Source of the DNA: an uncultured bacterium
Lineage (GTDB): Bacteria > Macinerneyibacteriota > Macinerneyibacteria > Macinerneyibacteriales > CAYRFE01
Assembly: GCA_964539615.1 (NCBI GenBank)
Contig: CAZIJP010000001.1
Location: 1-59,743 of the forward strand
Direction: 5' to 3'
DNA length: 59,743 nucleotides
Shown here piece after piece: positions 31,741 to 39,053 of the stretch. The translations under genes were made by a program, and so were the position numbers. The notes below the pieces were generated by a model. It was not told where the DNA came from. It saw only the letters and a program-made list of their open reading frames with translations, and ran no database searches. Numbering within the stretch: the stretch's first letter is position 1; every line of letters begins with the position of its first letter.

Positions 31741-34434
31741 TTACGACTGCTGAATTATATCATCGTACATTTTTTTCCTGCAATCCGGGCAAATACTGTG
31801 GCTAAATTGTGCATCGGTGTGCGATTCAATATATCCCTCAACGCTTTTCCAATCTTCCGCATCATGAATCTTCTTACAATGAGCACAAATATGAATGAAT
31901 CCGCTTAAGACTTTTGTTAAAGAACCTTCAAGTTTTTCATGCATCTCTTGGTTTTCGCGCTCAGCTTTTTCCCTCCGTTCGATCTCAAGCAAGATCTGCT
32001 CATGTAATTTTTTCACATTTATGAGAGTCTTAACCCGAGCAAGCAGCTCATCCTTATCAAAAGGTTTTACCAAATAATCATTAGCCCCGGATTTCAAGCC
32101 TGTTATGATATCGTGTATCTGATTCTTAGCGGTCAACATTAATATCGGCAATTCCATAAGTGAATATTTTTTTCGAATCGTCTCGGCAACATCATATCCG
32201 GACATTCGGGGCATCATCACATCAAGAAGGATAAGATCGGGAACAGAACCTTTCTCTATAATTTTTAAAGCCTCGATCCCGCTTTGTGCTTTGATTACAT
32301 TATATCGTGCGATTGATAAATGATTTAATAATACTTGGAGATTAATCGGATCATCATCAACAATCATAATTGATGCATGAGCATCTGTCCCGATCTCATA
32401 CTCAAGGATTTCTTTTACGTGCCTATGTGATTCTTGCTCAGTAAGCATCGGCAAGTTTTCCTGTGTTATCGGTATATCATTCGCTTTTGCATCACATATG
32501 AATAATGAAAATGTAAATTTTGAACCTTTCCCTTCAACTGATTCGACCGTGATAACACCGCCGTGCAATTCAACAAGTTTTTTTGTAATCGCCAGCCCTA
32601 TTCCCGTTCCGCTGAATCCGCGGAATGTTGCATTTGATGCTTGTTCAAAAGGCATAAATATTCTTTCAAATTGATCTGCCGGAATTCCAATTCCGGTATC
32701 TTCGATTGAAATTGAACACATTTCCTCGTCTTTGACGGCCCTGACCGTTACCGTACCATCATCCGTATATTTTATCGCATTTCCTATCAAATTGATCATG
32801 ATCTGTTGTAATCTGTCCTCATCAGCATAAACACAGGGAAATTCAGCGGGAATATCATTTATCAAAGTAATACTTTTATTATCCGTAAGATGCTTGGTCA
32901 GTTGTAAAACCATATCAACGACGGTATAAAGATTAAGCGGCTTTTTATTAAGTGTGATTGTCTTATTTTTCAAATGGGAAAAATCAAGTATATCATTAAT
33001 CAGGTTAGTTAATCGTTTGCCGCTGTTAATGATCATTATCAAGTTATGTTTTGCTTGTTCCGACATAACTCCGGCAATACCGTCAAATAACGATTGAGCG
33101 ATACCAATGATACCGTTCAACGGCGTTCGAAGTTCATGTGATGTGTTGGCCATAAACTCATCTTTCAGTTTATCGAGTGCAACCAATTTTTCAGAAAACA
33201 TTTCTACTTGTGAAAAAGCGGTCGAAATTCTCAACGACATAATATATGACTGAAAAATAATAAATACAAAAAACCCGACCGGAATCAGATAAGCGGTCAT
33301 GATTATCTGATTCGAATATAAAATATCATTTATAACAGTAACAGACAATACAAGAAATCCGGCAAGCATGACACGGGCACTTTCCTTCTTTTTAATGGAG
33401 GCTCTCACGAGGATGCTTATAATGTAGAATGCACCTACAAGGTCAATGATCTCATACAACGGCAACGTATAAATGTAGATCTTCGCCGGGAAAAACAATA
33501 CTACCGCAGAAAACAGCACGCCGAGCACTATAAAAGTTCCGGTAATACTTTTCACGGAATTATCGGGAAATAGAGAATGAAGATACAAAATAAATACTGA
33601 CAACACCAAATAATGCGGAAGATAATCAAGTTTTACGATAAACTCCCAGCCGGCATTAGGATATATGATATTTAAAAATCGTTCGCCGTTAACTGTAGTG
33701 AATAAAGCGAACAAAAGACATGTTATGCTGAAATATAATGTTGAAATATCTTTTTTCCGAAACATATATAAACTAAAATGATAAAACCCCATCAGAAAAA
33801 GTCCGCCGATAATAAAAAGATCAAAGGCAAGACGTTTCATAAGCCTATTCTGCACTACTTTCTCAGGTCCGATCTCAATCTCGGATTCCAGGCCGCCTCT
33901 GACATGTGAGTAATTGGAAATCTGCATAATTATATCACACTCTTTAGGAAGCGTAGTAAGTGTGGCAACTCTGTTTAGTAATTGAGGAAGAGTTGCATTC
34001 GGAGAAGTTCCAACCTTTCCATTGCCGAGGATTTCTTCACCGTTTACCCAGAGTCTGTATGATGTCAAGGGGAATGGAACAGATAACATGAGGCGACGCG
34101 GTTCATCTTTGAAACGAAGGTGAAGCCTGACCGTCGCATAACCGTGACCGGGCAGATGTCGGTCGCCGATCTTTATTGAATTCCATGTTCCGGGAAAAGT
34201 TATATATCCGCATAAACGGGGAGTTGTTTTATTAAAATCATCAGGTTGAAGTAATTGTTGCCAGTAAAATTCCCATTCACCGCTTAAAGTCACAATATCG
34301 GAAGTGAGTGACACGGCCGTTAGATCGATTACTCCCTTTTCTGCTGTTTTCTGATTTTTATTGTCACTGCCTAATCTACACGACACTACAGATAACAAAG
34401 CAAATACGGTTACTAAAAACAGCAGACGTCTCAT
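31741..34434 (-). CDS. hybrid sensor kinase: 7TMR-DISM extracellular domain, 7TM, HisKA, HATPase, REC and a Cys-rich C-terminal module
   Basis: A signal or lipobox-like N-terminus is followed by an extracellular domain of about 170 aa and seven TM helices. Then come an H-box (SHELRTPLNGI), N/G boxes (GTGIGLAITKKLVELHGG) and a receiver domain (IMIVDDDPINL...LLDVMMP...K). The C-terminus reads HICAHCKKI...FSHSICPDCRKK. Confidence 0.85.
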   Translation of the reverse strand: MRRLLFLVTVFALLSVVSCRLGSDNKNQKTAEKGVIDLTAVSLTSDIVTLSGEWEFYWQQLLQPDDFNKTTPRLCGYITFPGTWNSIKIGDRHLPGHGYATVRLHLRFKDEPRRLMLSVPFPLTSYRLWVNGEEILGNGKVGTSPNATLPQLLNRVATLTTLPKECDIIMQISNYSHVRGGLESEIEIGPEKVVQNRLMKRLAFDLFIIGGLFLMGFYHFSLYMFRKKDISTLYFSITCLLFALFTTVNGERFLNIIYPNAGWEFIVKLDYLPHYLVLSVFILYLHSLFPDNSVKSITGTFIVLGVLFSAVVLFFPAKIYIYTLPLYEIIDLVGAFYIISILVRASIKKKESARVMLAGFLVLSVTVINDILYSNQIIMTAYLIPVGFFVFIIFQSYIMSLRISTAFSQVEMFSEKLVALDKLKDEFMANTSHELRTPLNGIIGIAQSLFDGIAGVMSEQAKHNLIMIINSGKRLTNLINDILDFSHLKNKTITLNKKPLNLYTVVDMVLQLTKHLTDNKSITLINDIPAEFPCVYADEDRLQQIMINLIGNAIKYTDDGTVTVRAVKDEEMCSISIEDTGIGIPADQFERIFMPFEQASNATFRGFSGTGIGLAITKKLVELHGGVITVESVEGKGSKFTFSLFICDAKANDIPITQENLPMLTEQESHRHVKEILEYEIGTDAHASIMIVDDDPINLQVLLNHLSIARYNVIKAQSGIEALKIIEKGSVPDLILLDVMMPRMSGYDVAETIRKKYSLMELPILMLTAKNQIHDIITGLKSGANDYLVKPFDKDELLARVKTLINVKKLHEQILLEIERREKAERENQEMHEKLEGSLTKVLSGFIHICAHCKKIHDAEDWKSVEGYIESHTDAQFSHSICPDCRKKMYDDIIQQS

Positions 34435-34443
34435 AGCGCTCCT

Positions 34444-34680
34444 TTATGATAATCCGGGGAAAGAATCTACATATTGAATTTTAAAATCAGCGAAAGAGTC
34501 GACTATTTGAATCTTAAAATCAGGGAATGAATCTACCTCCTGCCATTTACCTACCGAGTCGGGAAACGATGTCACCATTTGCACCTTAAGATCGGGAAAA
34601 GAAGTCACAACTTCTACCTTATAATCGGCAAAAGAATCAACAAATTGAATTTTTCCGTAGATACTGCTAAGGTCTGGCAT
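34444..34680 (-). CDS. 78-aa protein composed of six tandem 11-residue repeats
   Basis: The repeat is K(I/V)(Q/E)xV(D/T)SF(P/A)D(F/L/Y), six times. AAGGAGGGA lies upstream of the ATG. The ORF ends 9 nt before the kinase start. Confidence 0.6.
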   Translation of the reverse strand: MPDLSSIYGKIQFVDSFADYKVEVVTSFPDLKVQMVTSFPDSVGKWQEVDSFPDFKIQIVDSFADFKIQYVDSFPGLS

Positions 34681-35250: not shown

Positions 35251-36363
35251 TCACACTTTTTCACTTTTTATATACAACGGATTCTCCAATACAACAATAG
35301 CAAAATTACGCACCTGATCTTGGCCTCGTGTTTTTTTCATGAGCTTATAGGTCACTTCACTCATATCGGCAATTTGGATAACAATATTTGATTTGCTTAC
35401 TCCGAGTATTTTTACAAAACCTTTAATTCCGGTCATTTCTTCGCATCTCACGACGGCGATTTGTTTTTTTGTTTTCCGGTCAAAAATCCGAATATTCACA
35501 TCAGCTTGCCGATATTCAAACGGTTTTACTTCCGTTTGCGTTGACGCTTTATCATAACCTCCCCCATATGACGCATATATATAGTTCTCATCAAACGCTA
35601 TACCGCCGATCACTCTGTCACCTACCTGTGTAATAGAACCGTTATAATTATACCATGCACACTCCTGATAATCCGCTTCAGTATCGGCAGAAAAAGTATC
35701 AAGAAGGTTCAAATCAAGATCATATTTTTCCAGTGTAAACGGTTTTTTGTAATAACCCAAGAACAAGCACGTATCAAAAGGATCATACGCCAGCATGCCC
35801 CCTTCAAAAAGATCTCCGTCCTGAGGAACCTCGCTATGTATCGACGCATAAGGGATCTTTTTTACGGCAACACTTTTCTCGAGATCATATTTTGTCAATT
35901 TGTTTCCGAATTTACCATTGATAAACATAAAATTCTCATTTACGGTAACGGTCATAGGTACGCCGGTTTCTTCATTCAAAGCGAAATCGTCCATGTGCTT
36001 ACCTTCAATGGAATACATTACCAATTTATTTTGATCATTGTCATAAATAACGATATGCCCGTTAGCAATGGTGATCGCCATATGCGATTGAATTTCCCCG
36101 GGGCCTTTACCGATCGGGATGGCGATCTCATTCAATATTTTCCCTGAAAGATCGGCAAAAACTAAAGCGCCGTCCTTATCTCTTTTTTGCGGATAAATTA
36201 CCGCATTATTATAATAATTTATCGCGGTCATGGCATAACTTGTTGAAAAATTAACCGGTTCCCAAATAGAAACGATCTTTGCATTCAAAATATCATCAGA
36301 CTTGGAACATCCTGTGAAGAAAACCGCTAAGTATCCGCATAACAGCAGCACTATTATTTTCAT
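35251..36363 (-). CDS. lipoprotein, possibly a 6-bladed beta-propeller
   Basis: It has a signal peptide with a lipobox (AVFFTGC). The 370-aa beta-rich sequence has periodic hydrophobic strands. AAGGAGA lies upstream of the ATG. The fold assignment is tentative. Confidence 0.6.
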   Translation of the reverse strand: MKIIVLLLCGYLAVFFTGCSKSDDILNAKIVSIWEPVNFSTSYAMTAINYYNNAVIYPQKRDKDGALVFADLSGKILNEIAIPIGKGPGEIQSHMAITIANGHIVIYDNDQNKLVMYSIEGKHMDDFALNEETGVPMTVTVNENFMFINGKFGNKLTKYDLEKSVAVKKIPYASIHSEVPQDGDLFEGGMLAYDPFDTCLFLGYYKKPFTLEKYDLDLNLLDTFSADTEADYQECAWYNYNGSITQVGDRVIGGIAFDENYIYASYGGGYDKASTQTEVKPFEYRQADVNIRIFDRKTKKQIAVVRCEEMTGIKGFVKILGVSKSNIVIQIADMSEVTYKLMKKTRGQDQVRNFAIVVLENPLYIKSEKV

Positions 36364-36429
36364 ACTATCTCCTTTGTTGAGAAAATCATGACCGAGCGGA
36401 ACGACAATCCGCCCGGTTTTAATAGTTGA

Positions 36430-36579
36430 TCATTTTTCCGGTAACGGTCTATCAAGATGAGACAACTCTTTGCTTGCAGCTCCGGATACCGTTTGAGTAG
36501 TCGATATCTTTTTTTCTTGCTGCAAACATCCGGAAGCAAAAACACAGATCAAAGCAAGCACAAACAACAACCGCTTCAT
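36430..36579 (-). CDS. unannotated 49-aa lipoprotein
   Basis: This ORF is below the ORF-track length cut-off. AAGGAGG lies 6 nt before the ATG at 36579. It reads MKRLLFVLALICVFASGC (signal peptide plus lipobox) then LQQEKKISTTQTVSGAASKELSHLDRPLPEK-stop. Confidence 0.45.
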   Translation of the reverse strand: MKRLLFVLALICVFASGCLQQEKKISTTQTVSGAASKELSHLDRPLPEK

Positions 36580-36630
36580 ACGAATCCTCCTTTTTTCAAC
36601 TGTCCGGTCTCTATCCGGCCAGCATTATTG

Positions 36631-37056
36631 TTAACGGTCAATATATATCCTGACATGCGTTCCATCATTTGATACAACATTGACCAAATCCTCATCGATC
36701 TCATCAATACTGTCAGTGATACCGGCTAATAGTGATGATATATCGATACCTTCCCGTTCCATTTGCTTAGCAGCCTGCTGAGGCATCATCGTAACCGCCA
36801 AATGAGCCAATTTCAAAGGTACTGTCACTTTCACATCATCACCTTCAGCCGACATAACTTCAATACGAAGCTTCCCCTTCAAATTTTTAGCAAACGTAGT
36901 GTTTGCACGGCGAACCTCAGAGCGAAAACCATTTGTACTATTTCTATCTGAGCTTCGTTTAACGGTTGAGTCTATTGCCTGCAACAAGCGTTCAGCCTGA
37001 TCCGCAGTGATCTTCCCGTTTTCCAACATATCCAATATTTTTGCTTTTTCATCCAT
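36631..37056 (-). CDS. SHOCT-like / LiaX-YvlB N-terminal-motif protein
   Basis: 141-aa ORF with the N-terminal sequence ILDMLENGKITADQAERLLQAI, followed by LKGKLRIEVMSAEGDDVKVTVPLKL. AGGAGG lies upstream of the ATG. Confidence 0.6.
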   Translation of the reverse strand: MDEKAKILDMLENGKITADQAERLLQAIDSTVKRSSDRNSTNGFRSEVRRANTTFAKNLKGKLRIEVMSAEGDDVKVTVPLKLAHLAVTMMPQQAAKQMEREGIDISSLLAGITDSIDEIDEDLVNVVSNDGTHVRIYIDR

Positions 37057-37067
37057 AATATTCCTCC

Positions 37068-37502
37068 TTATAAACGTACCATGACTGAAACACGGTCACG
37101 GCTTACAACATCAACTTCAACGGTATCGCCAAATCCGATAATAGGGCAACGCTTAATAATCAACAGAATGTTGACTAAAAGCCAGGTTATCGGTTTTAAC
37201 CAGAAATATTTTACGGTGACTTCCTTAGCCTTCACATAAACTCCGGAAAAAATACATTTTTCAAACGGGGAAAGCCCGCTAACAAAAAATATCTGGAATA
37301 CCAAGCTGACGGCGAGATAACCGAGTATTATCCAGTGCATTGTGCCGTTGATACCAAGATTCAAGGAATACAACGCATACCAAAGCGCGATCGTTACCGC
37401 AAAAAGTATCACTGCGGGCACAGCCTTCTTGATCAATATGCCTTTTACCGCCCAATACAAAACATATGTAATGATAAATAGTAGTATTGTAAGCATATTC
37501 AT
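37068..37502 (-). CDS. 4-TM membrane protein, unknown function
   Basis: 144-aa ORF with four hydrophobic helices. Its start forms an ATGA overlap with the upstream stop. Confidence 0.6.
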   Translation of the reverse strand: MNMLTILLFIITYVLYWAVKGILIKKAVPAVILFAVTIALWYALYSLNLGINGTMHWIILGYLAVSLVFQIFFVSGLSPFEKCIFSGVYVKAKEVTVKYFWLKPITWLLVNILLIIKRCPIIGFGDTVEVDVVSRDRVSVMVRL

Positions 37503-38383
37503 CCCTTTAATGCCCGGATCAATTTTTCGCCTTCCTCAGGCGTGACCTTTCCCGCTTCCATCATATCAATGATACGTTGAACATGTTTTTTTGTCATAGA
37601 TACTTCAACTTCAATCTCATCATTATGCTTATCGGAAAACATTTTTACAGGATTGAATTTCATGGATTTCATCATTGACTTTAGTATTATTTTTTCCTCC
37701 GGATATGAACCTTTTAAATCCACATCACCGCTTAACGATTTAATGGTCAAAGTAGAATCGCCGTCATATGATAAAAAATCAATTGCGACATCACCGGAAA
37801 TACTTTTGATAGTACCGTCGGCAGATAACGAGAAAGCGCCTTTGATTTCACAATCACCCGAAATACTATTTATATCAATATCTGAAAACTCTCCGTCCTT
37901 GATTTCAACATCACCGCTATATGAATTCAACTTAATCGATCCGTTAAATTTTTGTAAAAAAAGATCGCCGCTGTAAACCTCCATTGAGAGATTTTCAGAC
38001 ATTAACGTATTAATTTTTACATCTCCGCTGTATGTTTTGCAATTACCGCTGAATTTAAGAATATCAGCAGCCAAATCGCCGGAATAGGTCACGATCGAAC
38101 CGTCAAAACGGAGCGTTTCCGGATAACGAATGACAACATCAGCGCTATCACCAGATTTACCCGGAGACAGAATTATTATTCCGAATCTTTTTTCACGTTT
38201 ATTTTCACGGATCTTCAAAACGGTATTTTCTAAGGACACATCAAAAATATCTTCAGCTGCATTTTTACGAAGTCCGGGGAATTCAATTTCGATATCCTTT
38301 CGGTCTTCAGCTTTAAATGTCAGATCTCCGCTCTTTAGCGATACATCTAACGTCAATTTTTCGCCGGCATATTCAAATATCAT
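37499..38383 (-). CDS. DUF4097-like beta-helix ('putative adhesin') protein with a C-terminal SHOCT-like motif
   Basis: 294-aa ORF with at least seven (Y/I/L)SGD(V/L/C).(I/L) strand repeats. The C-terminus reads IIDMMEAGKVTPEEGEKLIRAL. It has ATGA overlaps at both ends. Confidence 0.7.
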   Translation of the reverse strand: MIFEYAGEKLTLDVSLKSGDLTFKAEDRKDIEIEFPGLRKNAAEDIFDVSLENTVLKIRENKREKRFGIIILSPGKSGDSADVVIRYPETLRFDGSIVTYSGDLAADILKFSGNCKTYSGDVKINTLMSENLSMEVYSGDLFLQKFNGSIKLNSYSGDVEIKDGEFSDIDINSISGDCEIKGAFSLSADGTIKSISGDVAIDFLSYDGDSTLTIKSLSGDVDLKGSYPEEKIILKSMMKSMKFNPVKMFSDKHNDEIEVEVSMTKKHVQRIIDMMEAGKVTPEEGEKLIRALKG

Positions 38384-38769
38384 AACGATCCTCCCTTTTT
38401 ATTTATCCGCTCCATCGCTTCCTCAAACGTAATCTTTCCTTCGTTGAGCATGTCAAGCACTTCATCAGCGTCAGGAGAAACAGCATCTTCATCAGCGACT
38501 CCCAGAGATGTCTTTGCCTTTTTTAGAAGATTCTTAACTTTCGGGTAAGAACAATTCATGAGTTTTTCCACTTGCTTGATACTTCCTTCTGCATATAAAA
38601 AAACCCGAATGAACTGTAATGTCTCTTCATCCAGGCCGGCCGAAGAACAATTATTAAAAATCCCCGTTACTTCAGCCTGACAACTGTTGCAGCTGAATCG
38701 TGTGATTACTACATCTCCTCCGCAGAATGGGCATTTCGAAATCATATCCATATGATCATCTCCCTTCAT
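38380..38769 (-). CDS. DUF2089-like zinc-ribbon plus HTH protein with a C-terminal SHOCT-like motif
   Basis: CPFCGG-x10-CNSC is followed by LQFIRVFLYAEGSIKQVEKLMNCSYPKVKNLLKK (HTH). The C-terminus reads VLDMLNEGKITFEEAMERI. The start codon is uncertain (M1, M7 or M9). Confidence 0.7.
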   Translation of the reverse strand: MKGDDHMDMISKCPFCGGDVVITRFSCNSCQAEVTGIFNNCSSAGLDEETLQFIRVFLYAEGSIKQVEKLMNCSYPKVKNLLKKAKTSLGVADEDAVSPDADEVLDMLNEGKITFEEAMERINKKGGSL

Positions 38770-39053
38770 CAGTAGTATAGTGACAAAATTAACACTGTCA
38801 AGCCTATATATTAATTTTTTTAATATTTTGTATTAATTTTATTAATATATGAATTTGATTTGTTAATTATTATAATTGCCTTTGGAATAAATATCTATTT
38901 TCAGCAGCAATAAATAACTTCGTCGAGATAAAAATAGTATTGAAGATATAATTCTGTTTAATTAAAGATAATAGAGAATAATTAAATTTTAATAAATGAA
39001 AAATCGAAGCAGCTCATTTGATCGAATCAAATTATTTCTTCTAATCGAGGATA

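Follow-up and report, generated by a model that had tools for sequence, protein, structure and literature searches.

A cluster of six minus-strand genes, numbered here P1 to P6 in transcription order, lies in a 59,743-nucleotide (nt) stretch of DNA from an uncultured bacterium (contig CAZIJP010000001.1 of assembly GCA_964539615.1, referred to as the window), and its first four genes seem to form an autoregulated operon that might link the state of the membrane to transcription through a predicted DNA-binding protein of the DUF2089 type (P1), a Toastrack (DUF4097) protein (P2), a small membrane protein (P3) and a protein combining a SHOCT-like module with a domain called X here (P4). The source genome is a metagenome-assembled genome of 265 contigs and 2.87 Mb, 91% complete and with about 42% G+C, to whose order Candidatus Mcinerneyibacterium aminivorans also belongs. 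An earlier reading of this DNA from its letters alone (the original prediction) had listed six minus-strand open reading frames (ORFs), all of which were found where it had placed them (Table 1); the junctions it described were read again in the sequence (ATGA overlaps for P1/P2 and P2/P3, an 11-nt gap for P3/P4), and the ribosome-binding site (RBS) that it claimed for each of the six genes is indeed there (in order from P1 to P6: AAGGGAG, AAGGGAGGA, AAAGGGA, AAGGAGG, AAAGGAGGA and AAAGGAG). For P3, an alternative ATG start at 37496, 6 nt downstream of the listed one, has the better RBS spacing. The gaps further downstream measure 51 nt (P4/P5) and 66 nt (P5/P6), the latter containing a GC-rich hairpin.

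Table 1. Features of the gene cluster and its surroundings, with positions counted in the window (aa, amino acids; HTH, helix-turn-helix; TM, transmembrane).
Feature	Position	Strand	Length	Basis
P1, long ORF	38380-38769	minus		ORF list
P1, probable extent: zinc ribbon, DUF2089-type HTH, C-terminal SHOCT-like module	38380-38751	minus	123 aa	Pfam and start analysis
P2: predicted cytoplasmic Toastrack (DUF4097) with C-terminal SHOCT-like module	37499-38383	minus	294 aa	Pfam
P3: predicted 3-TM protein with cytoplasmic X-like domain	37068-37502	minus	144 aa (142 from ATG 37496)	AlphaFold2, profiles
P4: N-terminal SHOCT-like module, C-terminal X domain	36631-37056	minus	141 aa	Pfam, model
P5: lipoprotein with signal peptide and lipobox ASGC	36430-36579	minus	49 aa	ORF and sister genome
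P5/P6 GC-rich hairpin (10 pairs) followed by CATGATTTTC, terminator-like	36391-36417	minus		Terminator scan and predicted fold
P6: lipoprotein with GKGPGE motif	35251-36363	minus	370 aa	Weak propeller match
Predicted sigma-70-type promoter	38774-38801	minus		Best match in region, 11/12
Predicted operator array of TTAA dyads	38789-38866	minus		Word positions and cross-phylum register
AT-rich inverted repeat TTTGATTCGATCAAA	39016-39032			
Repeat-rich ORF	34444-34680	minus	78 aa	
Hybrid sensor kinase	31741-34434	minus	897 aa	

Domain composition and conservation of the operon

The domain guesses of the original prediction (DUF2089, DUF4097 and SHOCT-like) were upheld by scans with the Pfam hidden Markov models. 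P1 matches Zn_ribbon_DUF2089 (PF22747; 28.3 bits against a cut-off of 27.6), in which CPFC...CNSC constitutes the four-cysteine ribbon, followed by DUF2089-HTH (PF09862; 57.6 bits against 33.4, residues 46-91 of the long ORF), which in the Pfam and NCBIfam scans weakly resembles region 4 of sigma-70, and by a SHOCT-like tail (PF22746; 29.2 bits against 27, and 30.6 bits in the genome search). P2, the sole DUF4097 protein of the genome, matches PF13349 over residues 12-225 (70 bits against 22.9), shows seven SGD repeats that can be read straight from the sequence, and ends in a SHOCT-like module scoring 23.8 bits by hmmscan, i.e., below the cut-off of 27, and 27.3 bits, above it, in a six-frame search of the genome; P4 carries the same module at its N-terminus (residues 3-32, 37.6 bits). 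The motif that had been said to be common to P1, P2 and P4 is thus Pfam PF22746 (SHOCT-like_DUF2089-C, about 25 aa), its likeness among the three proteins exceeding chance in profile comparison (E-values, E, of 1.4e-9, 6.6e-7 and 3.3e-5), and the whole 2.87-Mb genome contains exactly three matches to it, all within this cluster; the module plausibly links the components to each other. The classical SHOCT family (PF09851) was not reported for any of the three proteins at E <= 0.1, only PF22746 being so. Searches of PDB sequences with P1 and P2 gave nothing useful, and a “two-flavour” code in the SHOCT-like modules was given up as a candidate, since the motif expression recovered 12 P1 tails, too few for such a claim. 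As P1, P2 and P4 have neither a signal peptide nor a TM segment, all three are predicted to be cytoplasmic, which disagrees with the “surface module” of the original prediction; its designation of the host as a diderm is, for its part, backed by the presence of LpxC (263 bits).

Homologues of P1 were found in the sister genome and in each of the eight same-order genomes, the order P1-P2-P3-P4 being kept in these wherever the contig is long enough, and the operon is found on record VSIX01000038.1 as well. A search anchored on P4 yielded 80 loci distributed over more than 12 phyla (Delongbacteria, Fermentibacteria and relatives, Gemmatimonadota, Planctomycetota, Clostridia, Dehalococcoidia, Acidobacteria, Actinomycetes, Proteobacteria, Spirochaetes, Zixibacteria, Cloacimonetes and others), of which 78 include a DUF2089 gene, lying upstream of P4 and in the same orientation in every case that the gene map shows. 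A small TM protein is encoded directly before P4 in at least 56 of the 80 (a profile search added a few more) and a Toastrack gene is found in 18, including all those of the Mcinerneyibacteria and Delongbacteria group, while the genes 3' of P4 are unrelated between lineages (e.g., leuS or a ychF-like GTPase). Only P1-P4 are co-conserved, as a set of four across the order to which the host belongs, which does not leave the six-gene unit of the original prediction standing, and the smaller core, consisting of P1, the small membrane protein and P4, is what recurs in more than 12 phyla. Candidate carriers of the P1/P4 pair among cultivable bacteria are Priestia (Bacillus) megaterium (BMQ_3692), Streptomyces and Bacteroides thetaiotaomicron (BT1256).

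The third protein of the operon had been described as a 4-TM one, which is right as far as its being a membrane protein is concerned, the AlphaFold2 model pointing, however, to probably three TM helices and a short hydrophobic helix within a cytoplasmic domain. This model (predicted local distance difference test score, pLDDT, of 90.7; predicted template modelling score, pTM, of 0.76) was built on a 56-sequence alignment of homologues collected from the gene context, the word-indexed homologue search with P3 having returned only P3 itself. It places the TM helices at residues 3-20, 27-48 and 54-75, after which follow a beta-hairpin (85-102), a 14-residue hydrophobic helix (103-116) and a second hairpin (129-143); judging by the lysine-rich loop 21-26 and the positive-inside rule, this C-terminal domain would be cytoplasmic. 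No Pfam or NCBIfam family matches P3 at E <= 0.1, the LiaI/LiaF-type 4-TM profiles of those libraries included. The model of P4 comprises the SHOCT-like two-helix module (3-32), a disordered linker (33-55) and the X domain (62-140), for which Pfam has no model and which is depicted as two beta-strands, three helices and two further beta-strands.

These two architectures resemble each other. Common to the small membrane proteins are an N-terminal hairpin, such as LRVRV..D....V.LWIPL, and a C-terminal one, such as L.GL.VDV.S..GD.V...F, and both resemble the hairpins of the P4 X domain (LRIEV.S..GD.V.V.VPL and LVNV.S.DG..VRIYI). An hhalign comparison of the P3-like with the X profile gave a colinear match of 80 columns (E 1.7e-4, probability 49%) as opposed to 16 columns and E 9e-3 for the reversed X profile used as a control. 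When the X profile was run against all ORFs of the 80 loci, the P3-like proteins came next after all the true P4s (best E 1.8e-4), and the P3-like profile in turn matched 48 P4 proteins (best E 3e-3). It is likely, on the strength of these profile comparisons and the model, that the cytoplasmic domain of P3 is homologous to the X domain, i.e., that it is a membrane-anchored copy of it. That the X hairpins might be Toastrack-like rungs was considered and rejected (hhalign against the Toastrack alignment gave E 0.086 for X and 0.17 for P3, over 7-12 columns).

Proteins of the P4 type are numerous: a HMMER scan of 1.84 billion cluster representatives retrieved 1,956 at E <= 1e-3 and 517 at E <= 1e-10, most of them 115-170 aa in length and laid out as P4 is, with some consisting of X only. 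One of them, P0155 (333 aa), is a natural fusion of Gly-rich, beta-helix-like GGDV/CGGV repeats, which match no Pfam family, to a SHOCT-like+X part, and so joins what looks to be a beta-helix scaffold and the P4 family within one polypeptide.

Promoter and operator-like array

The best promoter match in the region consists of TTGACA (38801-38796) and TATACT (38779-38774) separated by a 16-nt spacer, agrees with the consensus at 11 of 12 positions and has an architecture that is conserved in the relatives; transcription is predicted to start near 38767. Because the promoter puts the transcription start there, and because the RBS of P1 (38766-38760) falls within the long ORF, the real start of P1 is probably the ATG at 38751 (MDMISKCPFC...), with the ORF start at 38769 being unused, and this choice agrees with the starts of the P1 homologues.

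The region between P1 and its upstream neighbour (38770-39053) had been called extremely AT-rich and said to contain repeated ATTAAT-like words, and both statements hold: its G+C content falls to 24-28%, compared with about 42% for the genome, and the words do exist, in a phased arrangement. TTAA starts at 38866, 38845, 38836, 38823, 38814 and 38792, i.e., at -65, -44, -35, -22, -13 and +9 relative to the first base of the -35 hexamer, so that TTAA-N5-TTAA dyads are formed at (-44, -35) and (-22, -13) and a TTGA-N5-TTAA dyad, which includes the -35 hexamer, at (0, +9), each 22 bp from the next. There are 139 TTAA-N5-TTAA dyads genome-wide, and it is only at the P1 promoter that two of them occur within 10-45 bp. 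With respect to ATTAAT-type clusters more generally, two others in the genome equal that of the P1 promoter in density, and a regulon search of the genome by word clusters and double dyads indicated no second target.

A comparable arrangement is seen well beyond this genome. In the alignment of P1 promoters of the relatives, TTGACA is followed by NN[AG]TTAAT in the spacer, and in many of them the -10 hexamer is directly followed by another TTAAT, with further boxes upstream. Among 52 DUF2089 promoters from many phyla, TTGAC[AT]N2-3TTAA is present in 20, as opposed to 0.1 in dinucleotide shuffles, and ATTAAT is observed 42 times against 18 expected (z = 6), with the control words being unenriched (TATATA, z 0.8; AATAAT, z 1.5), depleted (AAATTT, z -2.7) or mildly up (TAATTA, z 2.4); since many of the promoters belong to related Fermentibacteria, the counts are not independent. 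In the 32 promoters that were anchored on their -35 hexamer, TTAA peaks at +9/10, -12/-13, -21/-22, -33/-34, -42/-43 and +30 to +32, which reads as a 21-bp-phased array of 9-bp-spaced half-sites; the same register is found in at least eight phyla, and its formulation as TTAA-N5-TTAA or TATTAATA with a 21-bp phase agrees with the array of the window.

This array is most likely the operator of P1 itself, i.e., P1 would bind the dyads and control its own promoter. The likeness of the P1 HTH to sigma-70 region 4 fits the recognition of -35-like TTGA/TTAA words, and repression appears to be the likelier direction of control, as one of the dyads contains the -35 hexamer. Further upstream, directly after the neighbouring 210-aa gene, a short AT-rich inverted repeat is seen, which may be the terminator of that gene or another binding site.

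The lipoprotein genes and the surroundings of the operon

The two lipoproteins, which the original prediction had counted among the parts of the system, are absent from every locus other than this one and that of the sister genome. P5, which matches no Pfam family, was missed by the sequence search, and its counterpart in the sister genome is a 47-aa lipoprotein gene at the same position and behind a similar hairpin; P5 is a genus-specific fifth gene, probably co-transcribed with the preceding four. P6, whose only other occurrence next to the operon is likewise in the sister genome, belongs to a set of at least 13 paralogous genes for lipoproteins of about 370 aa on eight contigs, mostly in tandem pairs on other contigs (C12, C96, C18, C83, C135, C76 and C95 of the source genome, G000, in our numbering). 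No P6 paralogue adjoins a DUF2089 gene, which is because this locus is the only such cluster of the genome. Its best domain match, DUF5128 (a six-bladed beta-propeller), stays below the cut-off (20.3 bits against 22.9) and covers only residues 48-130. A recurring lipoprotein-propeller cassette of P5 and P6, suggested by a faint NVEALA match (E 0.08), was rejected, with none of the 12 other paralogues having a small lipoprotein ORF in front.

As operon boundaries are drawn here from sequence features, the hairpin between P5 and P6 is regarded as the probable, possibly leaky, end of the operon, and it is concluded that the functional unit is P1-P4 and that P6 is an unrelated neighbour.

The cluster lies amid housekeeping genes such as murA. 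The 78-aa ORF beyond P6 consists nearly entirely of six repeats of about 11 aa that follow the pattern (I/V)Q(F/I)VDSFPDFK; the sister genome has a strongly conserved counterpart (E 1e-40), and the ORF has no meaningful match in Pfam or NCBIfam. The 897-aa hybrid sensor kinase combines an N-terminal part of several TM segments with kinase and receiver domains, ends in a Cys/His-rich tail (CAHCKK...HSICPDCRKK) and adjoins the operon only in the sister genome.

A putative membrane-to-promoter switch and its alternatives

The link between DUF2089, Toastrack and SHOCT-like modules is already known from computational work (Ravi et al. 2024, mSystems, PMC11237479), in which DUF2089 was split into zinc ribbon, HTH and SHOCT-like parts, Toastrack and “SHOCT-like+X” neighbourhoods of DUF2089 were described in many lineages (diderms, and Toastrack within them, included), and Toastrack was proposed to be a sub-membrane assembly platform, with the SHOCT-like modules as membrane-proximal anchors. 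Table S4 of that study contains a “DUF2089 -> SHOCT-like+X” dyad (e.g., Bacillus megaterium ADE70705.1), whose two architectures, orientation and co-conservation are those of P1 and P4, whereas here a Toastrack-SHOCT-like gene and a 3-TM gene stand between the pair. Another context from the same study, made up of a sigma factor, a zf-HC2 anti-sigma receptor, a membrane-anchored Toastrack and DUF2089, is similar in combining a DUF2089 regulator with Toastrack and in the proposed relay of membrane-proximal signals to transcription; the Toastrack of the window is, however, soluble and ends in a SHOCT-like module, its membrane anchor would be a separate protein, and the Pfam scan of the six and the flanking ORFs revealed neither a sigma factor nor zf-HC2 anti-sigma domains, P2 also being devoid of TM segments. 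The locus is a lineage-specific four-gene (locally five-gene) variant of this computationally described regulatory module.

The resemblance to the YvlB/LiaX-type proteins that had been pointed out by the original prediction extends to the common Toastrack domain, and not to orthology: by the NCBIfam cut-offs, P2 is neither a LiaG (NF049997; 46.1 bits against 285) nor a LiaX (NF038025; 26.4 bits against 350). Both the Lia/YvlB proteins of Bacillus subtilis and LiaX of Enterococcus share the Toastrack beta-helix, and YvlB has SHOCT-like modules too, whereas the P2 module is single and C-terminal and regulation here would be exerted by a one-component DUF2089 factor. No PspA/LiaH (PF04012) match was found in the 91%-complete genome by a search that was positive in 9 of 14 control genomes, and no kinase, as would be expected of a LiaFSR-type two-component system, is conserved beside P1-P4 in the other loci; judged by these comparisons, the locus is not a Lia or Psp system. 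In anti-sigma/sigma pairs and in the PspBC-PspA-PspF switch, it is a membrane protein that controls whether a DNA-binding protein is free, and the same sequestration logic is proposed for P1-P4, the differences being the lack of homology to the components of those systems and the contacts proposed, which are SHOCT-like/SHOCT-like and X/X ones. A pairing that recalls that of P1 and the small TM protein is seen in the enterocin DD14 locus of a leaderless bacteriocin (PMC7332713), in which ORF C encodes an 89-aa DUF2089 protein and ORF D a 90-aa protein with two or three TM segments, and several further bacteriocin papers list DUF2089 genes.

The reading that is favoured here, with a confidence somewhat above even, is that P1-P4, together with P5, are an autoregulated operon encoding a kinase-free switch between the state of the membrane and transcription; as far as can be told from the encoded domains, the module includes no kinase, sigma factor or protease. 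Dimers of P1 would sit on the dyads along one face of the DNA, adjacent ones possibly held together by their SHOCT-like tails, and would cover the -35 hexamer, thereby repressing their own promoter. P3, as an inner-membrane protein whose beta-beta-alpha-beta-beta domain would face the cytoplasm, would report or respond to the state of the membrane, and P4 would be an adaptor docking on P3 by X/X-like pairing, its SHOCT-like module and that of P2 capturing the homologous tail of P1. Transcription of the operon, and possibly that of other genes, would then depend on P1 being either kept at the membrane or free on the DNA, with the beta-helix of P2 being an added, optional scaffold platform in this lineage. 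We infer every protein-protein step of this scheme, which follows the general Toastrack/SHOCT-like proposal of Ravi et al. 2024 and adds to it specific contacts and a DNA site.

Several observations speak against such a switch or weaken parts of it. The Toastrack gene is absent from many of the loci and the TM gene from some, and those parts can therefore not be essential to the core switch. Two of the dyads are located upstream of the -35 hexamer, at positions usual for an activator. The similarity between P3 and X is, at the hhalign probability given above, only moderately significant; the P4 model is of moderate confidence (pLDDT 64.5) and its search against PDB structures returned no match below E 0.1, and the same type of search with the P3 model ended at a best E of 0.5, with no solved fold among the results. 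For the classical SHOCT domains, initial experiments gave no support for oligomerisation (Eberhardt et al. 2013), and the literature search came across no experiment on a DUF2089 protein.

An alternative that seems unlikely would make P1 an ordinary autorepressor answering to a ligand or signal, and P2-P4 a sub-membrane protective or remodelling assembly held together by the shared modules, analogous to LiaI/LiaH or PspA and exerting no control over P1. Gene context does tie Toastrack and SHOCT-like modules to membrane-protection systems, a genome lacking PspA could find another protective device useful, and P3 is membrane-embedded, with P2 and P4 looking like abundant, small scaffold-type proteins; yet a membrane-remodelling domain is missing from all of the proteins, the best-conserved combination is that of P1 with P4, often alone, which suits a regulator and its partner better, and the SHOCT-like module is present on P1 as well, where it is kept in the relatives of the order and in two more distant genomes (12 P1 tails), which would be difficult to account for in a P1 that never met the others. 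The arrangement put forward by the original prediction, i.e., all six genes as one envelope-stress or surface module wired to both lipoproteins, is improbable: what argues for it, namely the common strand, the short gaps, an RBS at all six genes, the adjacency of P5 and P6 in the sister genome too and the lack of an evident promoter in the gap before P6 (which makes read-through possible), is outweighed by the absence of P5 and P6 from every other locus, the size of the P6 family, whose other members are away from DUF2089 genes, the hairpin with its short T-run between P5 and P6, and the predicted cytoplasmic location of the three motif-bearing proteins.

Even less credence is given to a module for immunity to, or regulation of, a peptide or bacteriocin, which is brought to mind by the DUF2089 gene followed by one for a membrane protein of about 90 aa in leaderless-bacteriocin loci such as that of enterocin DD14: neither the operon nor its immediate surroundings contain a gene for a bacteriocin-like peptide, an ABC exporter or a PH-domain immunity protein, and its neighbours, mostly housekeeping genes, differ between lineages. 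Last in order of probability, and very improbable, comes an anti-phage defence or toxin-antitoxin cassette, with which a small, self-contained, autoregulated operon of patchy distribution would be in keeping; none of the six proteins matches PADLOC, the Pfam scan detected no nuclease, NTPase or toxin-like domain, and the operon, set in housekeeping surroundings (murA), is vertically conserved within the order.

Returning to the kinase-free switch, a bolder generalisation of it, which is doubtful at present, would regard the triad of DUF2089, TM-X and SHOCT-X proteins as a widespread, new type of one-step transmembrane signalling that spans more than 12 phyla and about 2,000 sequence clusters and makes do with two portable pairing modules instead of a kinase, protease, sigma factor or second messenger. 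X (beta-beta-helix-beta-beta) would have two forms, one embedded in the membrane (P3) and one soluble (P4), joined by sheet pairing; the SHOCT-like module of P1 would glue 21-bp-phased repressor dimers across the -35 hexamer, P4 and P2 would compete for the P1 tail, and a change in the membrane would thereby lead directly to the disassembly of the repressor array.

What is new here, compared with the earlier computational description (Ravi et al. 2024), is the membrane partner, with its confident model and X-like nature, and the phased, predicted operator containing the -35 hexamer, all of which are absent from that study. Bacteria, uncultured and cultured alike, commonly have DUF2089 regulators and SHOCT-like partners, and the locus offers a compact, complete example of their combination: a predicted operator with defined bases, a confidently modelled membrane partner and clear pairwise contacts. 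Should the switch not be real, what would be left is an ordinary autoregulated operon; should it be real, it would represent a simple route from the state of the membrane to transcription that involves neither phosphorylation nor proteolysis, and would provide functions for two widespread small modules, the SHOCT-like one and X.

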